DNA of 64,000 nt from a virus, in IMG/VR virus record IMGVR_UViG_3300028025_006190, positions 12,978-76,977 of that record, one strand, 5' to 3'. Positions 2 to 28,026 of this stretch are shown here, in pieces (positions within the stretch are counted from its first letter, which is position 1; each line of letters starts with the position of its first letter). Position numbers and translations under genes: made by a program. Below the pieces are notes generated by a model. The model worked only from the letters and a program-made list of their open reading frames with translations, did no database searches and had not been told where the DNA came from.

Positions 2-1219
2 CAGCTTGGTGCTTCTTCTGCAGAGTACAAGCAAGAAAAAGAAGAGTACATGGAGATGGAAGCCGCCGAGTACGAGCCTGGTGGCTACGAGTATGGCGAA
101 GATATGGATGCCTACGAGTATGCATTCTCTAACCTAGAGAAGAATGGTGTGTACGAGGCATCAATCATTGCCAGTGCTTCGGACCCCCAGACCCGTGTAG
201 ATGCATTCTTTGCTGTCGCTGAGTTCGCTAAATTCACTGACGATGAGCGTAAAGAATTGGCAAAGAAAGGTTGGGCTATGCCAGATGGTGCATACCCGAT
301 CCGTAACGAGTCTGATCTAAAGAATGCAATCAAAGCTTACGGCCGTGCATCGCTCAAGGAGCAGGTCGCCACTAAGAAGCACATCATCAAGCGTGCGCGG
401 GCTCTTGGCCTTGTTGCCATGCTCCCCGATGTGTGGCACATCAAGAATGCATCCACTTCGGAGTTCAGCATCGACAACATGCGTGAAGCTGCAGCCAAGC
501 GGTCTAAAGACCTTAGTGATCCTGTCTTCCAGCTCCGTGCTCGCGTTGCTTCTGCCAAGTCAGATCTAGAAGATGCCCTAGAAGTGGCTCGAAAGTCTGG
601 AAATCTAGAAGCTGTTCGTCAGGCTGAGAAGGACATCAGGGAGATCAACAAAGATCAAACTGAGATACCAACTACGCCAGGTGTAGTTGAGCGTGATGAA
701 TTTGGTCGTATCAAGTTCACCGCAAAGACTCAGCCGAGAGACGCTCGTGGTCGATTCCGCGACGTTCTTGCACGCCTCAAGTCTAATCTCGGTACCTCTG
801 GTAGCCAGAATGTTGTTGCCAAGATTAAGGCCGCTGAGAACCTAGACAACACCGGAAACTATGCCGGAGCCGTTGAGGCAGTTGCTGACCTCATTAATAC
901 AATTGACCGCCTAGATACTGGTGCTCTAAACAAGGAATCCCTTGAGAACATCACACGTACCACTACCGATCTCGGTAAGGTCATTGCAAATCTTCCCCTC
1001 CCATTCTCTAACCAAGCACAGAAGGTTCGTTACAGTGACCTACCTCCTGCGCTCCAAGACCTGATGAAAAACATGATCACTAAGGTCGAGGAAAAGATTG
1101 GACAGGAAGACGCGGATATTGCAACGCAAGAGCTCCGTGGATTTATGTCAGGGTCTGACGTTTATAGTCAGGGCGAGGTTTCGTCCCAGATGAATAAATT
1201 GCTCAGATTGCTTACATAA
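2..1219 (+). CDS. Head morphogenesis / capsid maturation-associated protein, C-terminal part (5' truncated)
   Basis: Frame is open from position 2. Lies immediately upstream of the major capsid gene. Contains the AMPDGAYPIRNESDLKNAIKAYGRA...HIIKRARALG and QPRDARGRF motifs seen in phage head proteins. Confidence 0.6.
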   Translation, partial: QLGASSAEYKQEKEEYMEMEAAEYEPGGYEYGEDMDAYEYAFSNLEKNGVYEASIIASASDPQTRVDAFFAVAEFAKFTDDERKELAKKGWAMPDGAYPIRNESDLKNAIKAYGRASLKEQVATKKHIIKRARALGLVAMLPDVWHIKNASTSEFSIDNMREAAAKRSKDLSDPVFQLRARVASAKSDLEDALEVARKSGNLEAVRQAEKDIREINKDQTEIPTTPGVVERDEFGRIKFTAKTQPRDARGRFRDVLARLKSNLGTSGSQNVVAKIKAAENLDNTGNYAGAVEAVADLINTIDRLDTGALNKESLENITRTTTDLGKVIANLPLPFSNQAQKVRYSDLPPALQDLMKNMITKVEEKIGQEDADIATQELRGFMSGSDVYSQGEVSSQMNKLLRLLT

Positions 1220-4296: not shown

Positions 4297-5589
4297 ATGG
4301 CTACTCAAGATTATGCTGCTAGCATCCAGGGTGTATCCATTCGTGTTACTCGCCTGGACGCAAACGGCAACCTACTAAACGGAGCCGGTGATTCATACAC
4401 CACATCCGCATTCATGCGTGTTTCTTTCACGCCTGAATATGAAGAAGGCGACGAAATTACCGAAAAGTCGGCTAACGGCTCGGTCTGCGTTACCTACAAG
4501 TCCCCCGACACTCTCAAGCGTATTACCATGGAGCTCGCTATCTGTGAGCCCGATCCAGAGCTCACAAACCTGATCTCCGGTGGTCTTCTTCTTCGTAAGA
4601 ACCTTGGTACATTCGCATCTCCCGACAACAAGTCAATCGGTTGGGCTGCCCCCGCCGTTGGTGATGACCCCGCCGGTTACGGTGTGGCCATTGAGACATG
4701 GTCGCACGCAGTCAAGGATGGAAAGCGTGCCAGCACACTTCCCTACTTCCACTGGGTATTCCCATACGTCAAGCTTCGTCAGTCGGGTGACCGCGTCATT
4801 GAGAACGGTCTTCTCGCTAACACATTCGAAGGCTATGGACTGGGCAACCTTCTGTTCGGTGATGGCCTCGACGATCGCTGGGAGTTCCCAACGGCTGCCG
4901 GACGCCCCTACTCGTACGCACGTACAAACTGGGCACCGACCGGTCGCAACGGTTTCTACACCTGGCACGGTGAGCTAAGTTCTTCTGTTTCAAACAAGTT
5001 GAGAGAAGATGGCCTGGTTACACTTACCACTGCACAAGCTCACAACTATGCTGCAGGAGAGACTGTAACAGTCACTGGTGGAACCAAGACAGTGACTATC
5101 ACAGGTGCTACTGCAGGGTCCCCAACAACTGGGTCGGTTACATATGCTGCTGCCAACACCAGCACTAACGCTCTTGTAGTCGGAGACACTGTTGTTGTGA
5201 CCGGAGTCACGCCAGCTGGCTACAGTGGAACATTTGTAGTCACTGGTCGGACAAACTCTGACTTCACTGTAGCTAATGCAACAACTGGTGTGGCAACCGC
5301 TACGTCTGCCACTGGTGTGGTTAACACGTTGGTCGGTCTGACTGGAACATTTGAGATTGCTGATGTCCCAACAGACACAACCTTTACATATGTATTGGCT
5401 GGATCCGCCATTAGTACAACAGCAGTTAGCCCGGTTGGTACAGCGGTCGTCGCACCGGACAGCCGTGCTGTTAGTGTCCTGCCAAACCCAGATGACCCAG
5501 GAACATACAACGTTCCCGGTAACATCAACTACAACGCAGATGACGCTATTGACTACGTCATCCTATCGACTGAGAACCCTTCGTCGTAG
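4297..5589 (+). CDS. Major tail (tube) protein with C-terminal beta-barrel extensions
   Basis: RBS AAGGAG. IRVTRLDANG...EYEEGDEITEKSANGSVCV and YFHWVFP motifs. Thr-rich C-terminal domains. Confidence 0.85.
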   Translation: MATQDYAASIQGVSIRVTRLDANGNLLNGAGDSYTTSAFMRVSFTPEYEEGDEITEKSANGSVCVTYKSPDTLKRITMELAICEPDPELTNLISGGLLLRKNLGTFASPDNKSIGWAAPAVGDDPAGYGVAIETWSHAVKDGKRASTLPYFHWVFPYVKLRQSGDRVIENGLLANTFEGYGLGNLLFGDGLDDRWEFPTAAGRPYSYARTNWAPTGRNGFYTWHGELSSSVSNKLREDGLVTLTTAQAHNYAAGETVTVTGGTKTVTITGATAGSPTTGSVTYAAANTSTNALVVGDTVVVTGVTPAGYSGTFVVTGRTNSDFTVANATTGVATATSATGVVNTLVGLTGTFEIADVPTDTTFTYVLAGSAISTTAVSPVGTAVVAPDSRAVSVLPNPDDPGTYNVPGNINYNADDAIDYVILSTENPSS

Positions 5590-8467: not shown

Positions 8468-11400
8468 ATGGCTGTTGTTGGTAGCGCTAATCTTATAGCG
8501 CGAGTACTTACCGACCGAATAGATGAAGATCTACGTCGTGGCTTTTCCGACTCTAATCTCAAGGGGACGCACATCCAGGTCCGTCGTGCCGGAGAACGAA
8601 TAAATAAGTCACTCATGGACACCTTTAGAAATGCTAGAGGTAGAAATCCATTTGAAAAGATCGCTAATGGACTCAGGGAACTAGCCCCGGGGGCAGAAGC
8701 GGCTGCGCTTAAGTTTAGATCTTTGACAAGAGCAAACCTTACCCTAGGAACTGCCCTAAACGTACTACTTGGTGGTCTATTTAGCGTACTCGGCGGGTTA
8801 ACGTCTCTAGCAGGTGCGGCAGGAGGTGCGGCCGCTTCGTTAGGTGTTGTAGCAAATGGGGCATTTGCCTTAGTCGCTGGAATGATAGCAGCCTCGGTGG
8901 CCCTCCGAGGGGTTGGTAGGGCTCTTGGGGCCCTTAATAGGCAGTCTGCAGGGGCAGCTGACAATACTAGACAGGTGCAGCAAGCCGAGCAGGCTCTCGC
9001 ACAGACTATTGAACGTAACCGAGAAACATTAATCAATGCAAATAACGAGGTTCGTAGATCTCAGCTTGCCCTGAATGAAGCAATTAAACAGGGCCAAGAA
9101 GAAATCCAACAACTTGGGTTCGATGCCGAAGAAGCTGCTCTTTCTGAGAGCAGAGCTGCCCTCGAGCTAGACAAGGCTCGAGAGATACTTGCTCGTACCC
9201 AGGACCTTCCGCCAAACTCTCGTGCCCGCAAAGAAGCCGAGCTCGCTTTCCAAGAAGCAGAGCTAAATCTTCGAAGAGCAAAAGACAGATCTTCTGATCT
9301 CAATGAAGAGCAGGATCGTCTCGCTAAGACTGGAGTCTCTGGTACCCAGGTAGTTATTGACGCGACGAACGACTTAGCAGAGGCAGAAGCCAACAAAGCA
9401 AGAGTTGTTAGAGATGGAATTAGGGATCAGATCGCGGCTCTTGATGCACTCACCGCTGCGCAGGAGAGAGCAGCTGGTGGGGGTGGAGCAAACCCACTTG
9501 AAGGACTCAATGAGGCTCAAATAACTTTTGTTCGGTTCTTGCAGTCAATTCAGCCTAGGCTCAAGGAACTTAAAGCCGCCATTTCTGGTGCGTTTCTCGT
9601 TCCTCTGCAAGAGGCAATTACAGTCTTAGTAGACAAAGCACTTCCCACCATTGAAACAGGAATGGTAAGGGTGGCCGGAGCAACCGGAACTGCAGCGAAG
9701 TATTTTGCGAATGCTGTGGCCGATGGTACAAACCTAGCTAACTTAGGAAAAGTTTTCGAGAGCTCGGGAAAAATTATTGAGATCTTCGGTAAAGCTGCCG
9801 GAAGCCTATACGGGGCTCTTCTCTCTGTAATGGTAAATCTAATACCTGCTGCAGAACAATTTGCAAACTTCCTAGACTCTACGTTTGGAAAATTTGACGC
9901 CTACATGAAGGACGTCAAAAATCAGCCAGCTATTACAGACTTTTTTGAGCGGTCCAAAAATGCTCTTGCAGACTTCGGTGAGATTTTCGGCAACATCTTT
10001 GGTGGCTTTGGGAAGATCATTAACGCCAACCTGGGTCCAGGTACTGGCGGTCAACTTCTTCTTGATTGGCTAAAAGAGTCAACTCAAAGGTTCCAGGATA
10101 TGGACTCCACATTTGATGGAGCCGGCGGTATGCGCCAGTTTTTCCGAGATGTTGCTCAAAATACTAAGTCCATTATGCAGTCGATCGGTGCCCTGCTTGG
10201 GGAACTGATCAAACTCGGGGCTAATCCGGCTATCGGCGAGACTTTTGACATTTTAAAGGCCGGGGCACCCTTTATTGGCATAATGGCAAAAGAAGCCGTT
10301 GAATCAGGCCCGGCAATGGCAAACTTGATTGTTGTTTTGTCCGAAATCGGATCACTTCTTGCTGATTCCTCGGTGGCCGATGCTTTCTTCCAACCAATGA
10401 TTTTCCTTGCGGAAAAAGTCAGAGATGTCTTAAAGAACGAGACAGTCCAAGCAATTCTGGATGTGCTAGGGCCCATATTTGGATTTATAGCTGGTGTCGG
10501 CGTTATGGCCCAGTTGGCTGGATTTCTTGCTTTAGTTGTTGTTGGGAAAGTTATTCCCGCGTTTGCCGCCCTAGGCAAGGTGTTTGCTTTCATAGCTGCA
10601 AACCCAATAATTGTTGTTCTTGCTGCTCTTGCTGCTTTAATGGTTTATTTGTATACCACCAACGAAGAGTTTGCTGCGTCACTCAATCAAGTATTTAGCG
10701 AAATCTCTGCAGCATTTAGTGGGGTAATGTCAGAAATTGGTCCGCAAATAGCAGCGGCTTTCTCTGAGCTAGGCCCAATTCTGGCTGATCTTGCCCTCGC
10801 ACTTGGAGAGGTAATACTAACTATTCTCCCGCTTCTGATCCCGCTTATTCAAATAATTGCCCCGCTAATTGGCTCACTAGTCGAGCTGTTCGGTGGGCTA
10901 GTTACTATTTTGGCTGGCGTTCTTCTCGATACGATCAATGCGCTATTGCCGACCCTTGAGCTTCTCGTCAAGTCATTTGGAGACATAGTAGTTGCCATTA
11001 TGCCTCTAGTTAAGGATTTACTTGATGCACTGGTTCCGGCCTTCCTTGAAATCGTTGAGGCTATCCTGCCACTTATCCCAATTCTTCTTGACGCTCTTCT
11101 TCCCGTATTTAATCAATTGGTGGAAGCTATTGTTCCAGTAGTTCTTCAATTGGCTGAGCATCTTATTCCGGTGATCCAACAATTAGCAGAATTTATAGGA
11201 CCAGTAGCTGCGATAGTTGCTGAAGCGATTGGACAGCTAGCTCCAATATTCCTCGGTCTTATTCAACAGATGATGCCACTTGTTGGGGTTATTATTGACA
11301 CACTTATTCCGGCATTTATGGCAATAGTAGATGCTGTTATGCCTGTAGCTTTGAGTATCATAGAAGCGTTGCTTCCGGTAATTATTCAGCTTATGGACGC

Positions 11401-12133
11401 TCTTCTTCCACTAATAACTATGATTATTGAAGCCCTAGTACCTGTATTTTTGATGCTCGCAGAGGCAATTGTTCCACTAATCGAATTGATTCTTCCGCCA
11501 CTAGTTAGCCTAATTGAGATGCTTATGCCAGTTATTCAATTGCTTGCTGATCTTCTAATAGGGCCCCTCTCCTTCGCCATCGGAATTCTATCTGGGCTGT
11601 TCAAACTCCTGACTGGAGACTTTGAGGGTGCCGGTAAGGTATTTGGTGACGTATTCCAGGGGATGCTCGACTTTGGTAAAAAAATTGTTAATGACCTCAT
11701 TGGTATCTTTGAGGGAATGATCAACTTCGTCATTGACGGATTCAATAGAATGATCGACTTTATTAATAGTCTAAAAATTGAAGTACCCGACTGGGTCCCC
11801 CTTATTGGCGGTCAGACCCTGAGCCTAAATATCCCTCGTATTGGGAGGGTGTCAATCCCGCGTCTTGCTGAGGGTGGAGTGGTCCCCGCCCGCGCCGGAG
11901 GCACCCTTGCTCAGGTTGCCGAAGCGGGTCGCCCAGAGCGGATCGAGCCCCTCGATGCAAACGGTATGTCTAAGCGTGACCGATTCATTGTCGATCTGAT
12001 TAAATCTCAACAGGGTGACCAAAAAGGTATTAATATTACAGTAAACCCATCACCGGGTATGGACGAACAAGCACTGGCACAGGCCGTGTCTCGTCAATTG
12101 GCTTTCGAGATGCGTAGAGGTTCGGTTTACTAA
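8468..12133 (+). CDS. Tape measure protein
   Basis: 1221 aa with coiled-coil and long amphipathic Leu/Ile/Pro repeats. C-terminal LAEGGVV...AEAGRPE motif. Confidence 0.92.
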   Translation: MAVVGSANLIARVLTDRIDEDLRRGFSDSNLKGTHIQVRRAGERINKSLMDTFRNARGRNPFEKIANGLRELAPGAEAAALKFRSLTRANLTLGTALNVLLGGLFSVLGGLTSLAGAAGGAAASLGVVANGAFALVAGMIAASVALRGVGRALGALNRQSAGAADNTRQVQQAEQALAQTIERNRETLINANNEVRRSQLALNEAIKQGQEEIQQLGFDAEEAALSESRAALELDKAREILARTQDLPPNSRARKEAELAFQEAELNLRRAKDRSSDLNEEQDRLAKTGVSGTQVVIDATNDLAEAEANKARVVRDGIRDQIAALDALTAAQERAAGGGGANPLEGLNEAQITFVRFLQSIQPRLKELKAAISGAFLVPLQEAITVLVDKALPTIETGMVRVAGATGTAAKYFANAVADGTNLANLGKVFESSGKIIEIFGKAAGSLYGALLSVMVNLIPAAEQFANFLDSTFGKFDAYMKDVKNQPAITDFFERSKNALADFGEIFGNIFGGFGKIINANLGPGTGGQLLLDWLKESTQRFQDMDSTFDGAGGMRQFFRDVAQNTKSIMQSIGALLGELIKLGANPAIGETFDILKAGAPFIGIMAKEAVESGPAMANLIVVLSEIGSLLADSSVADAFFQPMIFLAEKVRDVLKNETVQAILDVLGPIFGFIAGVGVMAQLAGFLALVVVGKVIPAFAALGKVFAFIAANPIIVVLAALAALMVYLYTTNEEFAASLNQVFSEISAAFSGVMSEIGPQIAAAFSELGPILADLALALGEVILTILPLLIPLIQIIAPLIGSLVELFGGLVTILAGVLLDTINALLPTLELLVKSFGDIVVAIMPLVKDLLDALVPAFLEIVEAILPLIPILLDALLPVFNQLVEAIVPVVLQLAEHLIPVIQQLAEFIGPVAAIVAEAIGQLAPIFLGLIQQMMPLVGVIIDTLIPAFMAIVDAVMPVALSIIEALLPVIIQLMDALLPLITMIIEALVPVFLMLAEAIVPLIELILPPLVSLIEMLMPVIQLLADLLIGPLSFAIGILSGLFKLLTGDFEGAGKVFGDVFQGMLDFGKKIVNDLIGIFEGMINFVIDGFNRMIDFINSLKIEVPDWVPLIGGQTLSLNIPRIGRVSIPRLAEGGVVPARAGGTLAQVAEAGRPERIEPLDANGMSKRDRFIVDLIKSQQGDQKGINITVNPSPGMDEQALAQAVSRQLAFEMRRGSVY

Positions 12134-15100
12134 TGGCTAGGCAAAATCTACTTACCAACCCCAACTTCTCCCTTAGTACTGGGTGGAGGGGGCGTGAAGG
12201 TGCCACAATCCTCTTTACTCACTTCCTCGGTCGAACCTGCGTAGAGGTGACAAAGAAAGATACCCCCAAATCTGGCGTCGAGACAATTGACTACATTCCT
12301 ATATTACAAAATCCAGCAAATCTTCCATATGCATATTCTGCCTATATCTATATTCCAACAGGTCAGCCCTCAGGAGAGTTTGTTGTCTCTATTGAGTGGT
12401 ACACGTTTAGCTCTGGCACATACACCTCAATCCTAGAGACACAGTCTGATCCAACAGAACTCAGCTCCGGGATTGGTGAGTGGACCAGACTAACTCAGGT
12501 GACTGCAGCACCTAACAACGCGACCCATGCAAAGTTCCGCATCTACCAAACACAGACGGGGACAAATGAAGCAAAGTTCCTAGCGGACTACGCCCTATTT
12601 GAGCAGTCAAGCTTTGTTGGTGGATTTATTGATAATCTTACCCAGGCACAAGAGACGCAGATTGTTGACCGAGCACTTTCGATATATGAAGACGACTCTC
12701 ACATAACTAAATTGCAGCTCAATGCTGATGTTCAGATTGGGGATTTTGTCTTCAATACGATTGATGAAGATCAGATTATCTGGATTTGCACAGACATTGA
12801 GGGATGGTGGAATACTGCCACACCCGAGACACCCAACATTCCTCGAGGTTTCCAAGACGGATCTTACGACGTATCCGGGAGATACGCTGCAAGAGATCTC
12901 ACTCTAACGGGAGTATTCATTCCACAAGGGCCAGGCGATGTGGGAGTTGGACGACAGAAACTGTTGGCGGCAATTGATCTAGTTCGTCAAGGTGCTTGGC
13001 TGCGGACAAGTGAGGAGCCAACAAGAGCATCTTTTGTTCGCCTCACCGGTAGACCGCAAATTCAGACAGTAAATGCTCGAGGCCGAACAGAGTTCTCGAT
13101 TGCTCTTCGTGCGGGTGACCCAATTAAATACAAGTGGGATGACACCAAAATTGATGGAATTAGTTCTCAAGAAATAGATCTTGCGTCGGAAGCTCCAGAC
13201 GATTTTGGAACTTTGAGCATCATCAATGAAGGCGATGCTACGGTAACGGCAAAGCTAATTTTTACCGGCCCGCTAGGTTCTGGGTCTACTGTAGAGGTCT
13301 ATCACGAAAACAGTGGTACAACTGAGGTGATGACACTCATCGAGCCTCTCCGCAGTAACGGTGCCGTCGCTACAGTGACTGACGTCGAGATCACAAACAA
13401 TGTTGCTCTTGTTACTACAGAAGAAGCTCACGGTCTATCTATTGGTGAGGTTGTGTCTATTGTTTCTACAATAAATGACGATGTTAACGTCAGTTCAGCC
13501 ACAATTTCTTCAGTTACGGACACACTTCCATACACTCTGAGCTACACAATCACACATCCCGTCGATGACTTCCCCAAAGAAACTTCTGGCGGGACCGTTA
13601 ATCTAGTATCAAAAGACGTGATGGTAGTGGACAACTACCACAGAAATGTCACACTAAATGGCGATGAAACAGGCTACAGATCAAAGCTAGATACTTTGAC
13701 TGATTGGATAACACTCGAGCCTGGTCTAAATACTTTTACCTTCACTGACAGTATTGATCCGGATTCTGTAAGACTTAAATACTATGACGGAACTACAAAT
13801 AAAATTACGCTAACAACAACAGATTCTCATTTTCTTACTCAAAATAATGTTATATCTATTGAGTTTCCTACATATGCAGAAATTGCATTTAAAGAAGTTA
13901 CTAGCAATATAGTCACTATTACCACAGCTAACTCACACGGATTTTCTGTCGGAGATCAAATAGAGGTGAGTACAACCCTAAGTACCACCGTCACACAAAA
14001 AGAGATAACTTCTAATACTGCCACCCTTACCGTGGCAGATGGCTCAGCAATTTCTGACAATGATGTTGTCTCTGTGTCGATCCCTGCTACTGCTCAGGTT
14101 ATAGCAAAGAGTCGTTCGGGGGACTTGATAACTCTTACTACCTCAAATGCCGCCACTGGCCACGGATTCTCCAATGGAGACGAGGTGACAGTTGGATTCC
14201 CGCTAAGTGCACTAGCGACAAATAAGCAACTTATTGACAATGTGGCAACTATTACTACGGCCCAGAACCATAACTTTGTGCTGAATGATGAAATAAATGT
14301 AGCATTTCCGGAGACAACCAGTGTCAACCAGAAAACTGTATCTGACACCCAGGTAACCCTCAGGACCGCCACGGATCATGGGTTTTCTGTGGGGGACAGA
14401 ATCACTGTTGCACTCCCCACGGGATCAGCGGTCACACTAAGTGACTCTAGAAAATATGGTGGTGCAGCATATCTAGGTGTGACGTTTATACAGTCCTCGG
14501 GTGTAACTAGAACTCTAACTACAACTGATCCCCACAACTTTGCAGCAGGAGATCAAATTTACGTTGCAAGTATAAATACCGACTACAACGGAACACACAC
14601 CATCATCAATACCCCCACCACCACGACACTTACATATGATGTGACTGGTGGAACTTCTATAACTAATGCGTCACCGATCTCCACTGACGGAATAGGTACC
14701 GTAACAAACACCACTACGAGCTACCGAGTAACACTCAATACCGCAGCAGCACACAACTTTTCAGTTGGAGACTCGATCTTGGTGGGTGTTGGACTCCCGA
14801 CTACAGCCACTATAACCAACAGACTAGCCAGCTCTACTGAGTGCACACTCACATCAGCTGCGCACAAATACAGCGTTGGTGAAGTGATCACTGTGGCCCT
14901 GACGGGTTCTGGTGTAGATAGGTACAACGGAACATTTGCTATCTCTGCTGTGGCCACCGACACGTTTACTTATGTGTTTGCTGGAGCTAGTGAATCATCT
15001 ATCGCGGCCACTGGCTCGGTAACTAACTTGACGATCCAAAATATCTACAATGGAACAAAAGTTATTGATACGGTCCCGACTAATAGTTCTTTCACCTATT

Positions 15101-15249
15101 TGGTTTATGGACAAGACTCGTACACAACGAGTACAAAGGCAGGATCTAGTGCATCTATCTCTAATCTGACGAATACTGCACTTAATGGAACAAATTTAGT
15201 TCTTACGGCAGCTTCCGGTACGACTCTTCAATACACAAGGACGGTTTAG
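12133..15249 (+). CDS. Distal tail (Dit-like) protein with N-terminal CBM-like domain and nested beta-barrel repeats
   Basis: Follows the tape measure with a TAATG overlap. IEGWW...RDLTLTG...RAGDPIKY...NEGD...WITLEPGLN Dit-like motifs, then repeated TTxxxHxFxxGDxIxV units. Confidence 0.75.
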   Translation: MARQNLLTNPNFSLSTGWRGREGATILFTHFLGRTCVEVTKKDTPKSGVETIDYIPILQNPANLPYAYSAYIYIPTGQPSGEFVVSIEWYTFSSGTYTSILETQSDPTELSSGIGEWTRLTQVTAAPNNATHAKFRIYQTQTGTNEAKFLADYALFEQSSFVGGFIDNLTQAQETQIVDRALSIYEDDSHITKLQLNADVQIGDFVFNTIDEDQIIWICTDIEGWWNTATPETPNIPRGFQDGSYDVSGRYAARDLTLTGVFIPQGPGDVGVGRQKLLAAIDLVRQGAWLRTSEEPTRASFVRLTGRPQIQTVNARGRTEFSIALRAGDPIKYKWDDTKIDGISSQEIDLASEAPDDFGTLSIINEGDATVTAKLIFTGPLGSGSTVEVYHENSGTTEVMTLIEPLRSNGAVATVTDVEITNNVALVTTEEAHGLSIGEVVSIVSTINDDVNVSSATISSVTDTLPYTLSYTITHPVDDFPKETSGGTVNLVSKDVMVVDNYHRNVTLNGDETGYRSKLDTLTDWITLEPGLNTFTFTDSIDPDSVRLKYYDGTTNKITLTTTDSHFLTQNNVISIEFPTYAEIAFKEVTSNIVTITTANSHGFSVGDQIEVSTTLSTTVTQKEITSNTATLTVADGSAISDNDVVSVSIPATAQVIAKSRSGDLITLTTSNAATGHGFSNGDEVTVGFPLSALATNKQLIDNVATITTAQNHNFVLNDEINVAFPETTSVNQKTVSDTQVTLRTATDHGFSVGDRITVALPTGSAVTLSDSRKYGGAAYLGVTFIQSSGVTRTLTTTDPHNFAAGDQIYVASINTDYNGTHTIINTPTTTTLTYDVTGGTSITNASPISTDGIGTVTNTTTSYRVTLNTAAAHNFSVGDSILVGVGLPTTATITNRLASSTECTLTSAAHKYSVGEVITVALTGSGVDRYNGTFAISAVATDTFTYVFAGASESSIAATGSVTNLTIQNIYNGTKVIDTVPTNSSFTYLVYGQDSYTTSTKAGSSASISNLTNTALNGTNLVLTAASGTTLQYTRTV

Positions 15250-15252
15250 TAA

Positions 15253-18234
15253 ATGCCTAGTTTTGTTTTTGGTGCTGGCGGCACAAGTAACAATGGTGCT
15301 AGCTATACGGGTGATGTCTGGGTTCGCTCATTTGCTGGATATGCATCTGGGTTCAACAACAACATCTCTGGTGCTGGTGTGGTTGTCTATGACAGCATTA
15401 CTATTAACGGCACCTACAGTAATGCCTACCCCACGTACTCGGATGGCTATGCGTATTTGAACAGGGCCGGCGGCGGCTTTATGTACTTTAGCCGTTTTCA
15501 GGGTAACGGCGGGGTGGTTACAGACAATACAGGGTATTCGTGGACCAATGGTGGGCTCCAAGGCACCGTCACATGGTCGACAGTCCCCGCTGTAATTAGC
15601 GCCCCAACCGCTACAGCAAGCACTACGGCTCAAGGTACTGTTGCTCTTTCGTGGACCGCTCCCAACAACGGTGGCGCTACAATCACGAACTACAGAATTT
15701 TCTTCGAGACAAGTGCTAATGGTTCTACTGGCTGGTCTGGTAAAACAGAGGTAACAAAATCAACAAGTACGTCCACAAGCCATACGGTCACCGGTCTAAC
15801 AGTCGGAACTTACTATCGATTTTATGTAAATGCCGTAAACTCGCGCGGCACAGCAAACTACTCGACAGTTTCTGCTGTCCGCCAAGCCCCCGGTAACCCG
15901 GGAGCACCGACTGCTCTTACGGCCACAAAAAGTACTGCCGCTGTTGGGTCAGTGGTTCTCGGCTGGACCGCCCCGTCAGTGGTATCGAGCGGTATCACTG
16001 GCTATAACGTCTACGCCAGACTTTCTACTGGATCTAGAACAAGGATAGCTACTCTCACAGGGCCAACAACCTCTTTTACTGCAACAGGCCTAGTGCAGCG
16101 TGGCAGCTATACATTCGATGTGGCCGCTCGAAGCGCATTCTCAGACACCAATGCAACTGAGAGTACGGCATCGGCCACGGCCACCGCCCAGGCATCTGGT
16201 GTTTCGTCCCCGCCACTGAACTTGGTTGTTACTACTGGTGGTCTGGAAAATCAGCTTGTACTCAACTGGAGTGCCCCCACTGATACGGCAAGTGACCTCC
16301 AAGGATATTATGTGTACCGATCTACGGGGACCTTGGCTGCAACAATCTCTGGTTCAACAACAACAGCTACTATCACTGGGCTGATTCCCGGGCAAAGCTA
16401 TGGTTGGGATGTTCGTGCAAGAACGACGCTTTCGGAGACACTTTCTACATTTGGTGAAGCATCGACAATCATATATGGTGTCCCCCTAGGAGAGCCAGAC
16501 GCACCCACAATGACGTCCCTAACGGTACTGTCAACTGTTGCCGGAGCAGCCAGACTTGTTTGGATCCCAAGCCCAGCGGCTGTTTACGCCAAAATCTACC
16601 GCACCTACCCGGATGGCAGCGCCTCGGACTCACTAGTTGCATCAGTCAAAGGGACAAGCTACGTCTTCTACGGCCTAAACCCCAATACTACGTACTACTA
16701 CAAGATGTCGTCTGTCAGCTCTACTAGTGAGGGACCGAAAACCTCGTCCTCTTTGTCTGTCACTCCGCTATCTACATCAGTACAAACCATTACCACCGCC
16801 TCGACTGTCACTAATACATCAAACTCGGCAGTTTTTAATGGGACATATTTTGTTTCAAGTATTTTGGATGCTCAGCGATTTTCATATCTTCGAACAGCTT
16901 CAAATTTGTCCTCTACAGCAATTCCCGAATCATTTGGTGTACTGAGCAACCGAACAGGTGATGATCTTAGTGGAACATTTACAATATCTACGGGATCTCC
17001 AACAAGTAATCAATTTACTTACACAAGCACACCTTCCTGGGGCACTCAGAACATCCCTACAACCCCCGTGAGTGTGTCGGTCACTAATAACACCAGTGCG
17101 AGATTTAATGGTGTATATACCGCACAGTCTGACGCAAGCACAATTACGTACTCGGTAGCCGCGGGGTCTAATGTCTCGAGCAGGGCTGCTTCCGGGTCTG
17201 TAGTAAATCAAAGTAACAGCACATATAACGGTGTATTTACCATTACGGAGGCAACAGAGACCACCTTTACATACCCAGCGGCTGCAAGCGGCTCCGATCA
17301 AGAAACTACCGCATCGGCGGGGGCGGTGGATAATCTCACCAACAGGACCATCTACAATACTGACGAGACTCTTGTTACAAGTGTCCCAGCGTACAACAGG
17401 CTGGTATATGACGCAAAACCTTCATTTGTAAACAGATCATATGATTTTGCGACTAGCACTGCGGACTCCGATCCTGGAGATGGGAAGATTAGATTTAACA
17501 ACGCCACTCTTGGGTCCGTGTCTTCGATCTATATCAGCAACAAGGACACCAGCCTTGCTAGCCAAGTAGCTTGGTATCAAATGTGGAATGATGGGCTATC
17601 TGTCACCAATAAGGGTAAGTTGATTGTCGCGAACTCTTCTGGGCTGTGGAGCTTTACCGTATCCGGAACAGTAGTTTCAGCTAATGGCTACTACAGAATC
17701 CCGGTGTCCTCTCCGGTGGGAACTTCTGTCCCCGCTGCTGGGGCCGTAGCCGTGGCTTTTGTTCCATTTGGATTCACGGATGCCCCCTACAAGTTCAGTA
17801 CCAGCACAACTGTTGGCGACCCAGGTAGCGGGTACATCAGATATAACCAATCTTCTATACAAAGTGTTACTCAGTTGATCATCGACAGATATTCCAGTGA
17901 AACTAGCCCGGTTGATAGATTGAACTGGATCAATAGTTGGTATAATCCGCTGTTCTCATCAACACAAACAGGGCGAATCTTTATTAGAAGTCGCAATACT
18001 ATGGCGGAGTTCGCCCTGACTGGGGATGCTGTTTATAACTCCGGAGGATCCTACTTTACTGCCCCCGTCACTTGGAAAGCAGGAGATGCGGGAATTTTGG
18101 CAGCTGATTTCCCTGTATTGATTACTTTTGTTCAAAGTAAAAATGCGGAGCTATATCAGCCGTACGGGGACGTACGAAAAGCTAATAGTATTGCAAACCT
18201 GGAGATACAATACCGCTCCGGTTGGCTTGGCTAG
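15253..18234 (+). CDS. Minor tail protein with four FN3-like domains, orphan barrel half-domains and a Dit-like C-terminus
   Basis: LSWTAP...ITNYRI...GLT.GT.Y.F.V.A.N FN3 repeats. Ends LEIQYRSGWLG. Confidence 0.75.
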   Translation: MPSFVFGAGGTSNNGASYTGDVWVRSFAGYASGFNNNISGAGVVVYDSITINGTYSNAYPTYSDGYAYLNRAGGGFMYFSRFQGNGGVVTDNTGYSWTNGGLQGTVTWSTVPAVISAPTATASTTAQGTVALSWTAPNNGGATITNYRIFFETSANGSTGWSGKTEVTKSTSTSTSHTVTGLTVGTYYRFYVNAVNSRGTANYSTVSAVRQAPGNPGAPTALTATKSTAAVGSVVLGWTAPSVVSSGITGYNVYARLSTGSRTRIATLTGPTTSFTATGLVQRGSYTFDVAARSAFSDTNATESTASATATAQASGVSSPPLNLVVTTGGLENQLVLNWSAPTDTASDLQGYYVYRSTGTLAATISGSTTTATITGLIPGQSYGWDVRARTTLSETLSTFGEASTIIYGVPLGEPDAPTMTSLTVLSTVAGAARLVWIPSPAAVYAKIYRTYPDGSASDSLVASVKGTSYVFYGLNPNTTYYYKMSSVSSTSEGPKTSSSLSVTPLSTSVQTITTASTVTNTSNSAVFNGTYFVSSILDAQRFSYLRTASNLSSTAIPESFGVLSNRTGDDLSGTFTISTGSPTSNQFTYTSTPSWGTQNIPTTPVSVSVTNNTSARFNGVYTAQSDASTITYSVAAGSNVSSRAASGSVVNQSNSTYNGVFTITEATETTFTYPAAASGSDQETTASAGAVDNLTNRTIYNTDETLVTSVPAYNRLVYDAKPSFVNRSYDFATSTADSDPGDGKIRFNNATLGSVSSIYISNKDTSLASQVAWYQMWNDGLSVTNKGKLIVANSSGLWSFTVSGTVVSANGYYRIPVSSPVGTSVPAAGAVAVAFVPFGFTDAPYKFSTSTTVGDPGSGYIRYNQSSIQSVTQLIIDRYSSETSPVDRLNWINSWYNPLFSSTQTGRIFIRSRNTMAEFALTGDAVYNSGGSYFTAPVTWKAGDAGILAADFPVLITFVQSKNAELYQPYGDVRKANSIANLEIQYRSGWLG

Positions 18235-18266: not shown

Positions 18267-28026
<9,760 letters not shown>

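Follow-up and report, generated by a model that had tools for sequence, protein, structure and literature searches.

Two adjacent phage genes that probably encode one distal tail protein, with domains shared between their products

Here we suggest that two adjacent tail genes of a large siphophage, recorded in IMG/VR as IMGVR_UViG_3300028025_006190, very probably represent one evolved distal tail protein (Dit) after gene fission, the two products of which fold together. The window, by which we mean the whole analysed stretch of 64,000 nucleotides (positions 12,978 to 76,977), is part of this 76,977-base record, whose completeness is 45% (CheckV). The gene order is tape measure, gene 1, gene 2 and Tal-like, thus gene 2 sits between Dit and Tal. 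The closest cultured relatives are the 186-195 kb Microbacterium siphophages Cece, Pumpernickel, Zooman, Big4 and A3Wally, and in the cultured Microbacterium relatives genes 1 and 2 are both labelled just “minor tail protein”; they are gp81 and gp82 in Cece, gp95 and gp96 in Pumpernickel, and gp83 and gp84 in Zooman. A preliminary description of the stretch, made by a model from the letters and a list of open reading frames (ORFs), had placed the two ORFs in one frame with TAG TAA between them, and this is confirmed by the sequence (12133-15249 and 15253-18234).

Gene 1 has most of the attributes of a Dit. It lies after the tape measure gene and possesses a ring-forming N-terminal domain and a peripheral C-terminal domain. 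The latter is recognized by the Pfam family PF22768 (SPP1_Dit) with 33.4 bits, against a cutoff of 25, at residues 489-550 (profile positions 36-93 of 97). The match of PF05709 (Sipho_tail) is weak (13.7 bits, cutoff 24.2). phrog_5577, a minor tail protein family, matches residues 198-387 with an E value of 6.5e-13, and Foldseek matches the gene 1 model to the SPP1 Dit structure 2x8k with an E value of 4e-6. The loops of the peripheral domain carry extra domains, as is characteristic of evolved Dits: a barrel at residues 410-480 and a large insertion after residue 543. The first of these is predicted by AlphaFold2 (AF2) with a predicted local distance difference test score (pLDDT) of about 90, its C-half scoring under threshold, and in many single-chain relatives tandem barrels occupy the same site. 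A Dit is expected to hold its whole fold in one polypeptide that ends in the terminal strand; gene 1 ends instead in the C-half of a barrel.

The end of the Dit fold that is absent from gene 1 is found in gene 2. The ordinary Dit of Actinomycetia phage DSL-LC01 (OQ999401, 385 aa) is 41% identical to residues 165-553 of gene 1 and finishes with WITLAPGLN, 19 residues, FYRSGWLG and the stop. It is also followed by Tal. With the ordinary Dit as query, no relevant match came from a sequence search against solved structures. Gene 1 has WITLEPGLN at residue 525 and never YRSGW, while the C-terminus of gene 2 is LEIQYRSGWLG, with the final seven residues identical to the C-terminus of the DSL-LC01 Dit. 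Thus, whereas DSL-LC01 has the two motifs 19 residues apart in one chain, about 1,450 residues and the border between two genes lie between them here. Four residues of the terminal motif (R484, S485, G486 and W487 in the numbering of alignment A2, to which 504 is added to obtain the gene 2 residue, as for chain 2 of the fold described below) are invariant. A tail profile, whose 45 positions cover the C-terminal ends of 33 different ordinary Dits from related loci, splits accordingly: positions 2-29 match gene 1 and positions 27-45 match only the end of gene 2 (Table 1). In the preliminary description the end of gene 2 was taken for the terminal strand expected right after the WITLEPGLN of a Dit, and both the split of the profile and the homology to DSL-LC01 agree with it. 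At the level of sequence, the assignment of the Dit C-terminal strand to the end of gene 2 is thus supported.

The large insertion of gene 1 is built of a repeated barrel that consists of an N-half and a C-half. Profile hidden Markov models (HMMs) of the two half-motifs were made from curated copies; true units score 15-36 bits and noise less than 1 bit. After the Dit core, gene 1 has nine N-halves (residues 558, 594, 630, 666, 705, 741, 793, 866 and 903) and four C-halves (residues 817, 930, 971 and 1016), in the order N N N N N N (NC) N (NC) C C. The first six N-halves (residues 558-741) are consecutive and span nucleotides 13804-14418, in close agreement with the row of six proposed initially at about 13801-14420. 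Three of the four C-halves belong to the inner units 7, 8 and 9 and one to the outer unit 6, so that, with nine N-halves against four C-halves, five (N1-N5) are left unpaired; the initial reading, in which one of the six outer units is closed by gene 1 and five are left open, is thereby borne out, the closed one being unit 6. Each of N1-N5 comprises strand 1, the HGFxxGDxIxV segment and then an outgoing connector with a conserved lysine. The connector lysines K549, K587, K623, K659, K698 and K734 are invariant or nearly so. In gene 2 the HMM finds no N-half and five C-halves, at residues 527, 571, 617, 657 and 700 (nucleotides 16831, 16963, 17101, 17221 and 17350), within a few bases of where exactly five orphan C-halves had been reported after the FN3 domains. 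Complete barrels always have the N-half directly followed by the C-half, as in units 7 and 9 and in the tandem NC arrays of single-chain Dits. The family E1_FCCH (PF16190) matches gene 1 with 17.3 bits, the cutoff being 29.5, and the relative P0123 with 41.5 bits, and it is precomputed on many homologues.

The first half of gene 2 is of a different kind. Four stretches of PF00041 lie at residues 118-500, above the gathering score (119.2 bits), and they are preceded by an N-terminal domain for which a search of the ESM Atlas with residues 1-112 gave no usable match (template modelling score, TM, below 0.35). The five C-half blocks downstream are kept across 14 aligned gene 2 homologues. Between them and the terminal strand there are two domains with the DPGxGxIRxN motif. 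These DPGxG domains are absent from the Microbacterium phage orthologues, and in alignment A2 the gap is also present in other lineages; from the sequences they are probably a lineage-specific receptor-binding insertion. Gene 2 varies elsewhere as well. At locus L010 (10827-14099; also at L017) it has a glycine-rich stretch of about 200 residues (480-690) amid the FN3-bearing part, upstream of the C-halves, and at locus L038 its five C-halves are followed by CBM-like repeats.

The division of the Dit is common to related loci, among which 85 Dit genes were compared and 18 two-gene loci examined. All Dits that end in YRSGW have balanced halves and are followed by Tal. All Dits without this end have excess N-halves, and the next gene, which begins after a gap of -1 to 24 nt, ends in [YF]RSGWxG, with the exception of loci L006 and L038. 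The tail profile is split between the two genes in 16 of the 18 two-gene loci, including those of Cece, Pumpernickel and Zooman; the same L006 (which ends at the contig end) and L038 (no terminal strand) are the exceptions. The inner tip varies, with 7 N-halves and 2 C-halves in Pumpernickel, Zooman, L010 and L011, 8 and 3 in Cece, L007 and L008, and 9 and 4 here. Despite this, the excess of N-halves in gene 1 is five and the number of C-halves in gene 2 is five in every lineage inspected, with the HMM in six pairs and by eye in L001, L005, L008, L010 and L011. An exhaustive search of cluster representatives gave about 35 clusters (50% identity) of the split type, which include six independently sequenced cultured phages.

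The association of the two chains was modelled with ESMFold2 in a three-chain fold of gene 1 residues 370-1038, gene 2 residues 505-730 (the scored partner) and gene 2 residues 955-993, together with three controls. The interface score ipSAE is 0.71 for this fold and 0.00 for the best of the three controls. The mark for ipSAE is reached by 58 of 80 solved complexes and by 2 of 110 mismatched pairs, counts that apply only roughly here because own alignments and three chains were used. At least 95% of the contacts agree between runs, the pLDDT of the partner is at least 83 and there are about 900 residue contacts. In the model the contacts are made in reversed order, N5-C1, N4-C2, N3-C3 and N2-C4, and both N1 (residues 556-598) and C5 (residues 700-721) are within the interface, which agrees with the antiparallel zipping of two chains foreseen in the preliminary description. 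Dit residues 410-414, 488-490 and 547-553 of gene 1 contact the base of the gene 2 segment. When gene 1 is swapped for an unrelated protein, the pLDDT of the gene 2 segment is 36. In the AF2 model of gene 1 alone, the complete barrels have pLDDT of 85-94 and N1-N5 of 61-80, and the HGFxxGDxIxV segments of N1-N5, which are the second strand, are coil (for example, residues 563-583 and 599-619). Independent folding of the two ORFs and pairing of halves within a chain, the outcomes against which the initial proposal had been set, are thus not what the models give: N1-N5 are partly coil alone, the gene 2 segment is poorly predicted without gene 1 and there are no intra-chain pairs. The modelling supports binding of the gene 2 C-half segment to gene 1.

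Hence, we propose the following architecture. Gene 1 would provide the CBM-like domain, the Dit ring domain and the peripheral Dit domain without its last strand. Its chain would leave the last Dit loop outward through the N-halves of five FCCH-like barrels, and complete barrels would form the tip. Gene 2, with a coupled translation start, would begin at this tip with its N-terminal domain and four FN3 domains, which form an arm, and then zip back, so that the five barrels receive their C-halves in reverse order. Near the ring its chain would, in this lineage, pass through two fibre-tip-like domains, and it would close with the strand that ordinary Dits carry directly after the PGxN strand. 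As the halves are shared between two products, the two chains would be obligate co-folding partners. The result may be a rod in which each of five barrels is built from two chains; every Dit subunit would presumably have one such rod, which gives six arms per tail tip. The SPP1 Dit gp19.1 (2x8k), the structural paradigm, is a hexameric ring, and a hexameric Dit here would mean six of these arms on the virion. Adhesion to cell-surface glycans would be suggested by the CBM22/16/4-like domain of gene 1 and by the FN3 arm. We infer the docking of the last strand, from homology, as well as the hexameric context, the ancestral single chain and the role in host adhesion.

Several points weigh against this architecture. 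The PF22768 model covers residues 545-550 of gene 1 (SVRLKY) with the positions that correspond to the last strand in an ordinary Dit, and these residues could fill the last-strand position by themselves. We read SVRLKY as the first outgoing connector, because Lys549 is invariant like the lysine after each N-half and because the unsplit P0123 family has both a SVRLKY-type segment and a terminal YYRSGWIA. The fold, moreover, lists contacts of the scored partner only; the seat of the terminal 39-residue piece on the Dit domain is not among them, and this piece meets the scored partner at V974 and A977 only. It is also an ESMFold2 prediction from our own shallow alignments, in a three-chain format unlike that of the calibration. 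The alignment of gene 2 was drawn from the loci, and a word-index homologue search with gene 2 residues 505-993 gave 7 matches. Automated counts are below five in divergent lineages, thus “always five” rests partly on inspection by eye; the five C-half blocks are visible there by eye and in the 14-sequence alignment, and the rebuilt HMM still undercounts them. Finally, gene 2 of L038 (11063-17371, 2102 aa) is without the terminal strand, and no YRSGW strand was found in any frame across the 19 kb locus.

As to the Dit domain into which the last strand docks, the returning chain might close the ring in trans, with the terminal strand of gene 2, and perhaps the outermost barrel, completing the Dit of a neighbouring hexamer subunit by domain swap. 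Dits are hexameric rings, as established for SPP1 Dit, the docking of the terminal piece is not among the reported contacts, and the about 235 residues (730-965) that separate C5 from the terminal strand here are enough to reach a neighbour. However, in the Microbacterium phage orthologues and in many metagenomic ones the terminal strand comes just about 35-45 residues after C5, and so short a linker favours the nearest Dit domain; in the model it is the Dit residues of the same chain listed above that contact the base of the gene 2 segment. We hold such a swap to be improbable, and consider it likely, on grounds of homology, that the last strand docks within the Dit domain of its own subunit. 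Sharing of domains might also be denied altogether, with both genes folding independently and gene 2 being an ordinary baseplate accessory protein beside the Dit. Adjoining tail genes often bind without sharing domains, and gene 1 alone still has pLDDT of 61-80 and some hairpins in the N-half region of its AF2 model. But the second strand of the lone N-halves is coil in that same model, the gene 2 segment loses its predicted fold without gene 1 (with the interface scores of the fold and its controls as given above), complete barrels always have the C-half directly after the N-half, five excess N-halves always equal five orphan C-halves while inner units vary, and gene 2 has the Dit terminal motif. 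This makes independent folding very unlikely.

The least credible alternative, to which we assign next to no weight, is that there is one polypeptide, made by stop-codon readthrough or recoding, or that the stop is a sequencing error or marks a pseudogene. It finds some ground in the common frame of the two ORFs, just 6 nt apart, and in the 18 junctions compared (that at 15220-15255 and 17 related ones), 11 of which are in frame, many with a stop, then 3 nt, then ATG. These loci are related to one another. The stops here are, however, two different ones in tandem. Among the 18 junctions all three frames are used, so the shared frame of genes 1 and 2 is not required; the gap ranges from -1 to 24 nt, one junction overlaps by a base (ATGA-type) and the longer gaps hold further stops. 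Every junction provides a separate start codon, ATG in all but one (GTG), with a Shine-Dalgarno (SD)-like AAGG or GGAGG just upstream. The use of three frames together with an own start and an SD-like motif at every junction indicates two coupled genes rather than readthrough, and the break is kept in the about 35 clusters and six cultured phages mentioned above, which also speaks against this alternative. The apparent excess of in-frame junctions, taken from mutually related loci, fits an origin by an in-frame stop plus a start in the linker, with later drift.

With the split of one evolved Dit as the preferred reading, the unsplit relatives indicate how it may have arisen. Fourteen cluster representatives have single-chain insertions in the last loop, as do the L082 gene and the P0123 family with its 13 members, and the halves of the tail profile are 60-1300 residues apart in them. 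These insertions often hold barrels, some of them nested. In single-chain proteins the last loop of the Dit C-domain is thus an insertion hot spot. The metagenomic single-chain last-loop Dits (the P0123 family, L082, P0216, P0219, P0231 and others) share with the split type the loop, the lysine connector, the barrels and the YRSGW end; unlike it, they are unsplit and have shallower nests, such as N1[2][3]C1 followed by N4[5][6][7]C4, with no FN3 arm seen. A fused orthologue with the five-deep nest and the FN3 arm was not found in the best 150 cluster representatives, where long matches (1500-2760 aa) merely have longer N-terminal parts. Of the single-chain hairpin, cut near its tip, that had been proposed as the ancestor, the same-loop insertion is therefore seen in unsplit relatives and the identical nest with the FN3 arm is not; a single-chain ancestor is a reasonable inference and not an observation. 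The AF2 model of unsplit P0123, based on 13 sequences, has a mean pLDDT of 62.6, and below 50 in the Dit C-domain and terminus, too poor to show the return of the last strand.

The Tal of the same phage presents a similar nest in one chain. It has five N-halves (residues 558, 597, 638, 676 and 717) with lysine connectors, then a complete barrel with a helical insert (residues 790-850), and then C-halves at residues 861, 980, 1106, 1145 and 1188 with complete barrels interleaved. Thus, the barrel, the lysine connectors and the succession of five N-halves, tip and five C-halves are alike in both proteins; unlike in the split Dit, the whole nest of Tal is in one chain, which is presumably trimeric.

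In chaperone-usher pili, donor-strand complementation swaps one strand between like subunits. There, and in engineered split-protein complementation, an incomplete beta fold is likewise finished by strands of another chain. Here, unlike in pili, six domains would be completed at once by two different co-transcribed gene products, and there is no homology. There are good descriptions of evolved Dits (PMC7291167, PMC10688798), and tail tubes that bear FCCH domains have also been described (PMC13576161). As in the known evolved Dits, the Dit core here comes after the tape measure and the loops of the peripheral (galectin-like) domain hold extra domains, which would stand out from the ring as adhesion arms; modules of carbohydrate-binding type occur as well. 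However, the known ones are single polypeptides with the carbohydrate-binding module (CBM) in an internal loop, whereas here the CBM22/16/4-like domain of gene 1 is N-terminal and outside the insertion, which consists of FCCH-like barrels, FN3 and fibre-tip-like domains. Further differences are the insertion in the last loop, the five-deep nest of barrels and the cut of the polypeptide at the tip, with the five barrels and the Dit domain each predicted to need two gene products. PF02018 is precomputed on many homologues. The CBM22/CBM16/CBM4-like beta-sandwich precedes the Dit ring domain, and some relatives have several of them, which stretches gene 1 to 1500-2760 aa. In the literature on split or two-gene Dits, on FCCH domains in phage tails and on related Microbacterium phages we found no description of a two-gene Dit or of two-chain nested barrels.

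The Dit is the hub for siphophage adhesion devices, and the sharing of its fold and of five domains between two genes would be an unusual natural fission inside domains. This bears on the folding of deeply nested insertions, on the annotation of tail genes and on the exchange of adhesion modules. We tentatively consider, while finding it rather doubtful, that the fission is adaptive and not neutral, the cut at the tip letting the outgoing and returning halves zip after translation. This would avoid N-halves awaiting their C-halves about 1,400 residues downstream. Gene 2 would then be an exchangeable cassette with the FN3 arm and two fibre-tip domains, for which the five half-barrels and the last Dit strand serve as a universal plug into the ring, and a swap of gene 2 alone could change host range. 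The half-barrel zipper may also offer protein engineers a natural multi-domain split-protein pair. Since the relatives Cece, Pumpernickel and Zooman are cultured, the proposal is directly testable.

Table 1. Genes, domains and motifs of the window (nucleotide positions) and predicted inter-chain pairs (residue numbers)
Feature	Position	Strand	Basis or remark
Tape measure gene	8468-12133	+	phrog_6090, E 1e-59
Gene 1, larger part of the proposed split evolved Dit (1038 aa)	12133-15249	+	ORF list; directly 3' of the tape measure gene
CBM-like N-terminal domain of gene 1 (aa 1-165)	12133-12627	+	Foldseek on AF2 model: CBM22, CBM16, CBM4, TM 0.6-0.74 relative to target
One barrel (aa 410-480), inserted into the Dit C-domain at the earlier site	13360-13572	+	N-half HMM match at aa 425, 20 bits
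Penultimate part of the Dit C-domain (aa 516-543, including WITLEPGLN), last Dit-core segment in gene 1	13678-13761	+	Tail profile positions 2-29, 33.5 bits
N-halves N1-N5 (aa 558-740), unpaired within gene 1	13804-14352	+	HMM matches, 20-34 bits
Distal tip of gene 1, with the N-half of unit 6, then unit 7 (complete), unit 9 nested in unit 8, and finally the C-half of unit 6 (aa 1016-1038)	14353-15246	+	HMM order N, NC, N, NC, C, C; AF2 pLDDT mostly 85-94 across complete barrels
TAG TAA tandem stops	15247-15252	+	AAGGA within the 3' end of gene 1, 12-16 nt before the ATG of gene 2
Gene 2, smaller part of the proposed split Dit (993 aa)	15253-18234	+	ORF list
N-terminal domain (aa 1-112) and four FN3 domains (aa 113-500) of gene 2, putative displayed arm	15253-16752	+	Pfam fn3
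C-halves C1-C5 (aa 527-722), all five orphans, with a returning GxVxNxTN connector after each	16831-17418	+	HMM, 15-23 bits
Pair of repeated DPGxG domains (aa 730-965), after C5 and before the terminal strand	17440-18147	+	31% identity to Pelagibacter phage HTVC010P tail fibre
Terminal Dit strand, as assigned (aa 975-993, ends YRSGWLG)	18175-18231	+	Tail profile positions 27-45, 19.7 bits
Tal-like/hub gene	18267-22796	+	phrog_1885
Collagen-like fibre gene (1745 aa)	22789-28026	+	
N5 with C1	gene 1 705-707, 719, 723; gene 2 529-545		Lowest-error pair
N4 with C2	gene 1 666-668; gene 2 588-590		Lowest-error pair
N3 with C3	gene 1 630-648; gene 2 619-651		Lowest-error pair
N2 with C4	gene 1 596-611; gene 2 661-693		Lowest-error pair

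The fibre gene downstream of Tal contains tail-collar domains as well as collagen triple-helix repeats (163 bits), and CBM_5_12 matches it weakly. The G+C content is raised at 24-28 kb (0.565-0.567, against about 0.47 nearby). Upstream of the tail genes described here, a 430-aa ORF at 4297-5589 has one N-half (residue 241, 23 bits) and one C-half (residue 347, 11 bits) about 100 residues apart, a spacing which suggests another barrel domain interrupted by an insertion.

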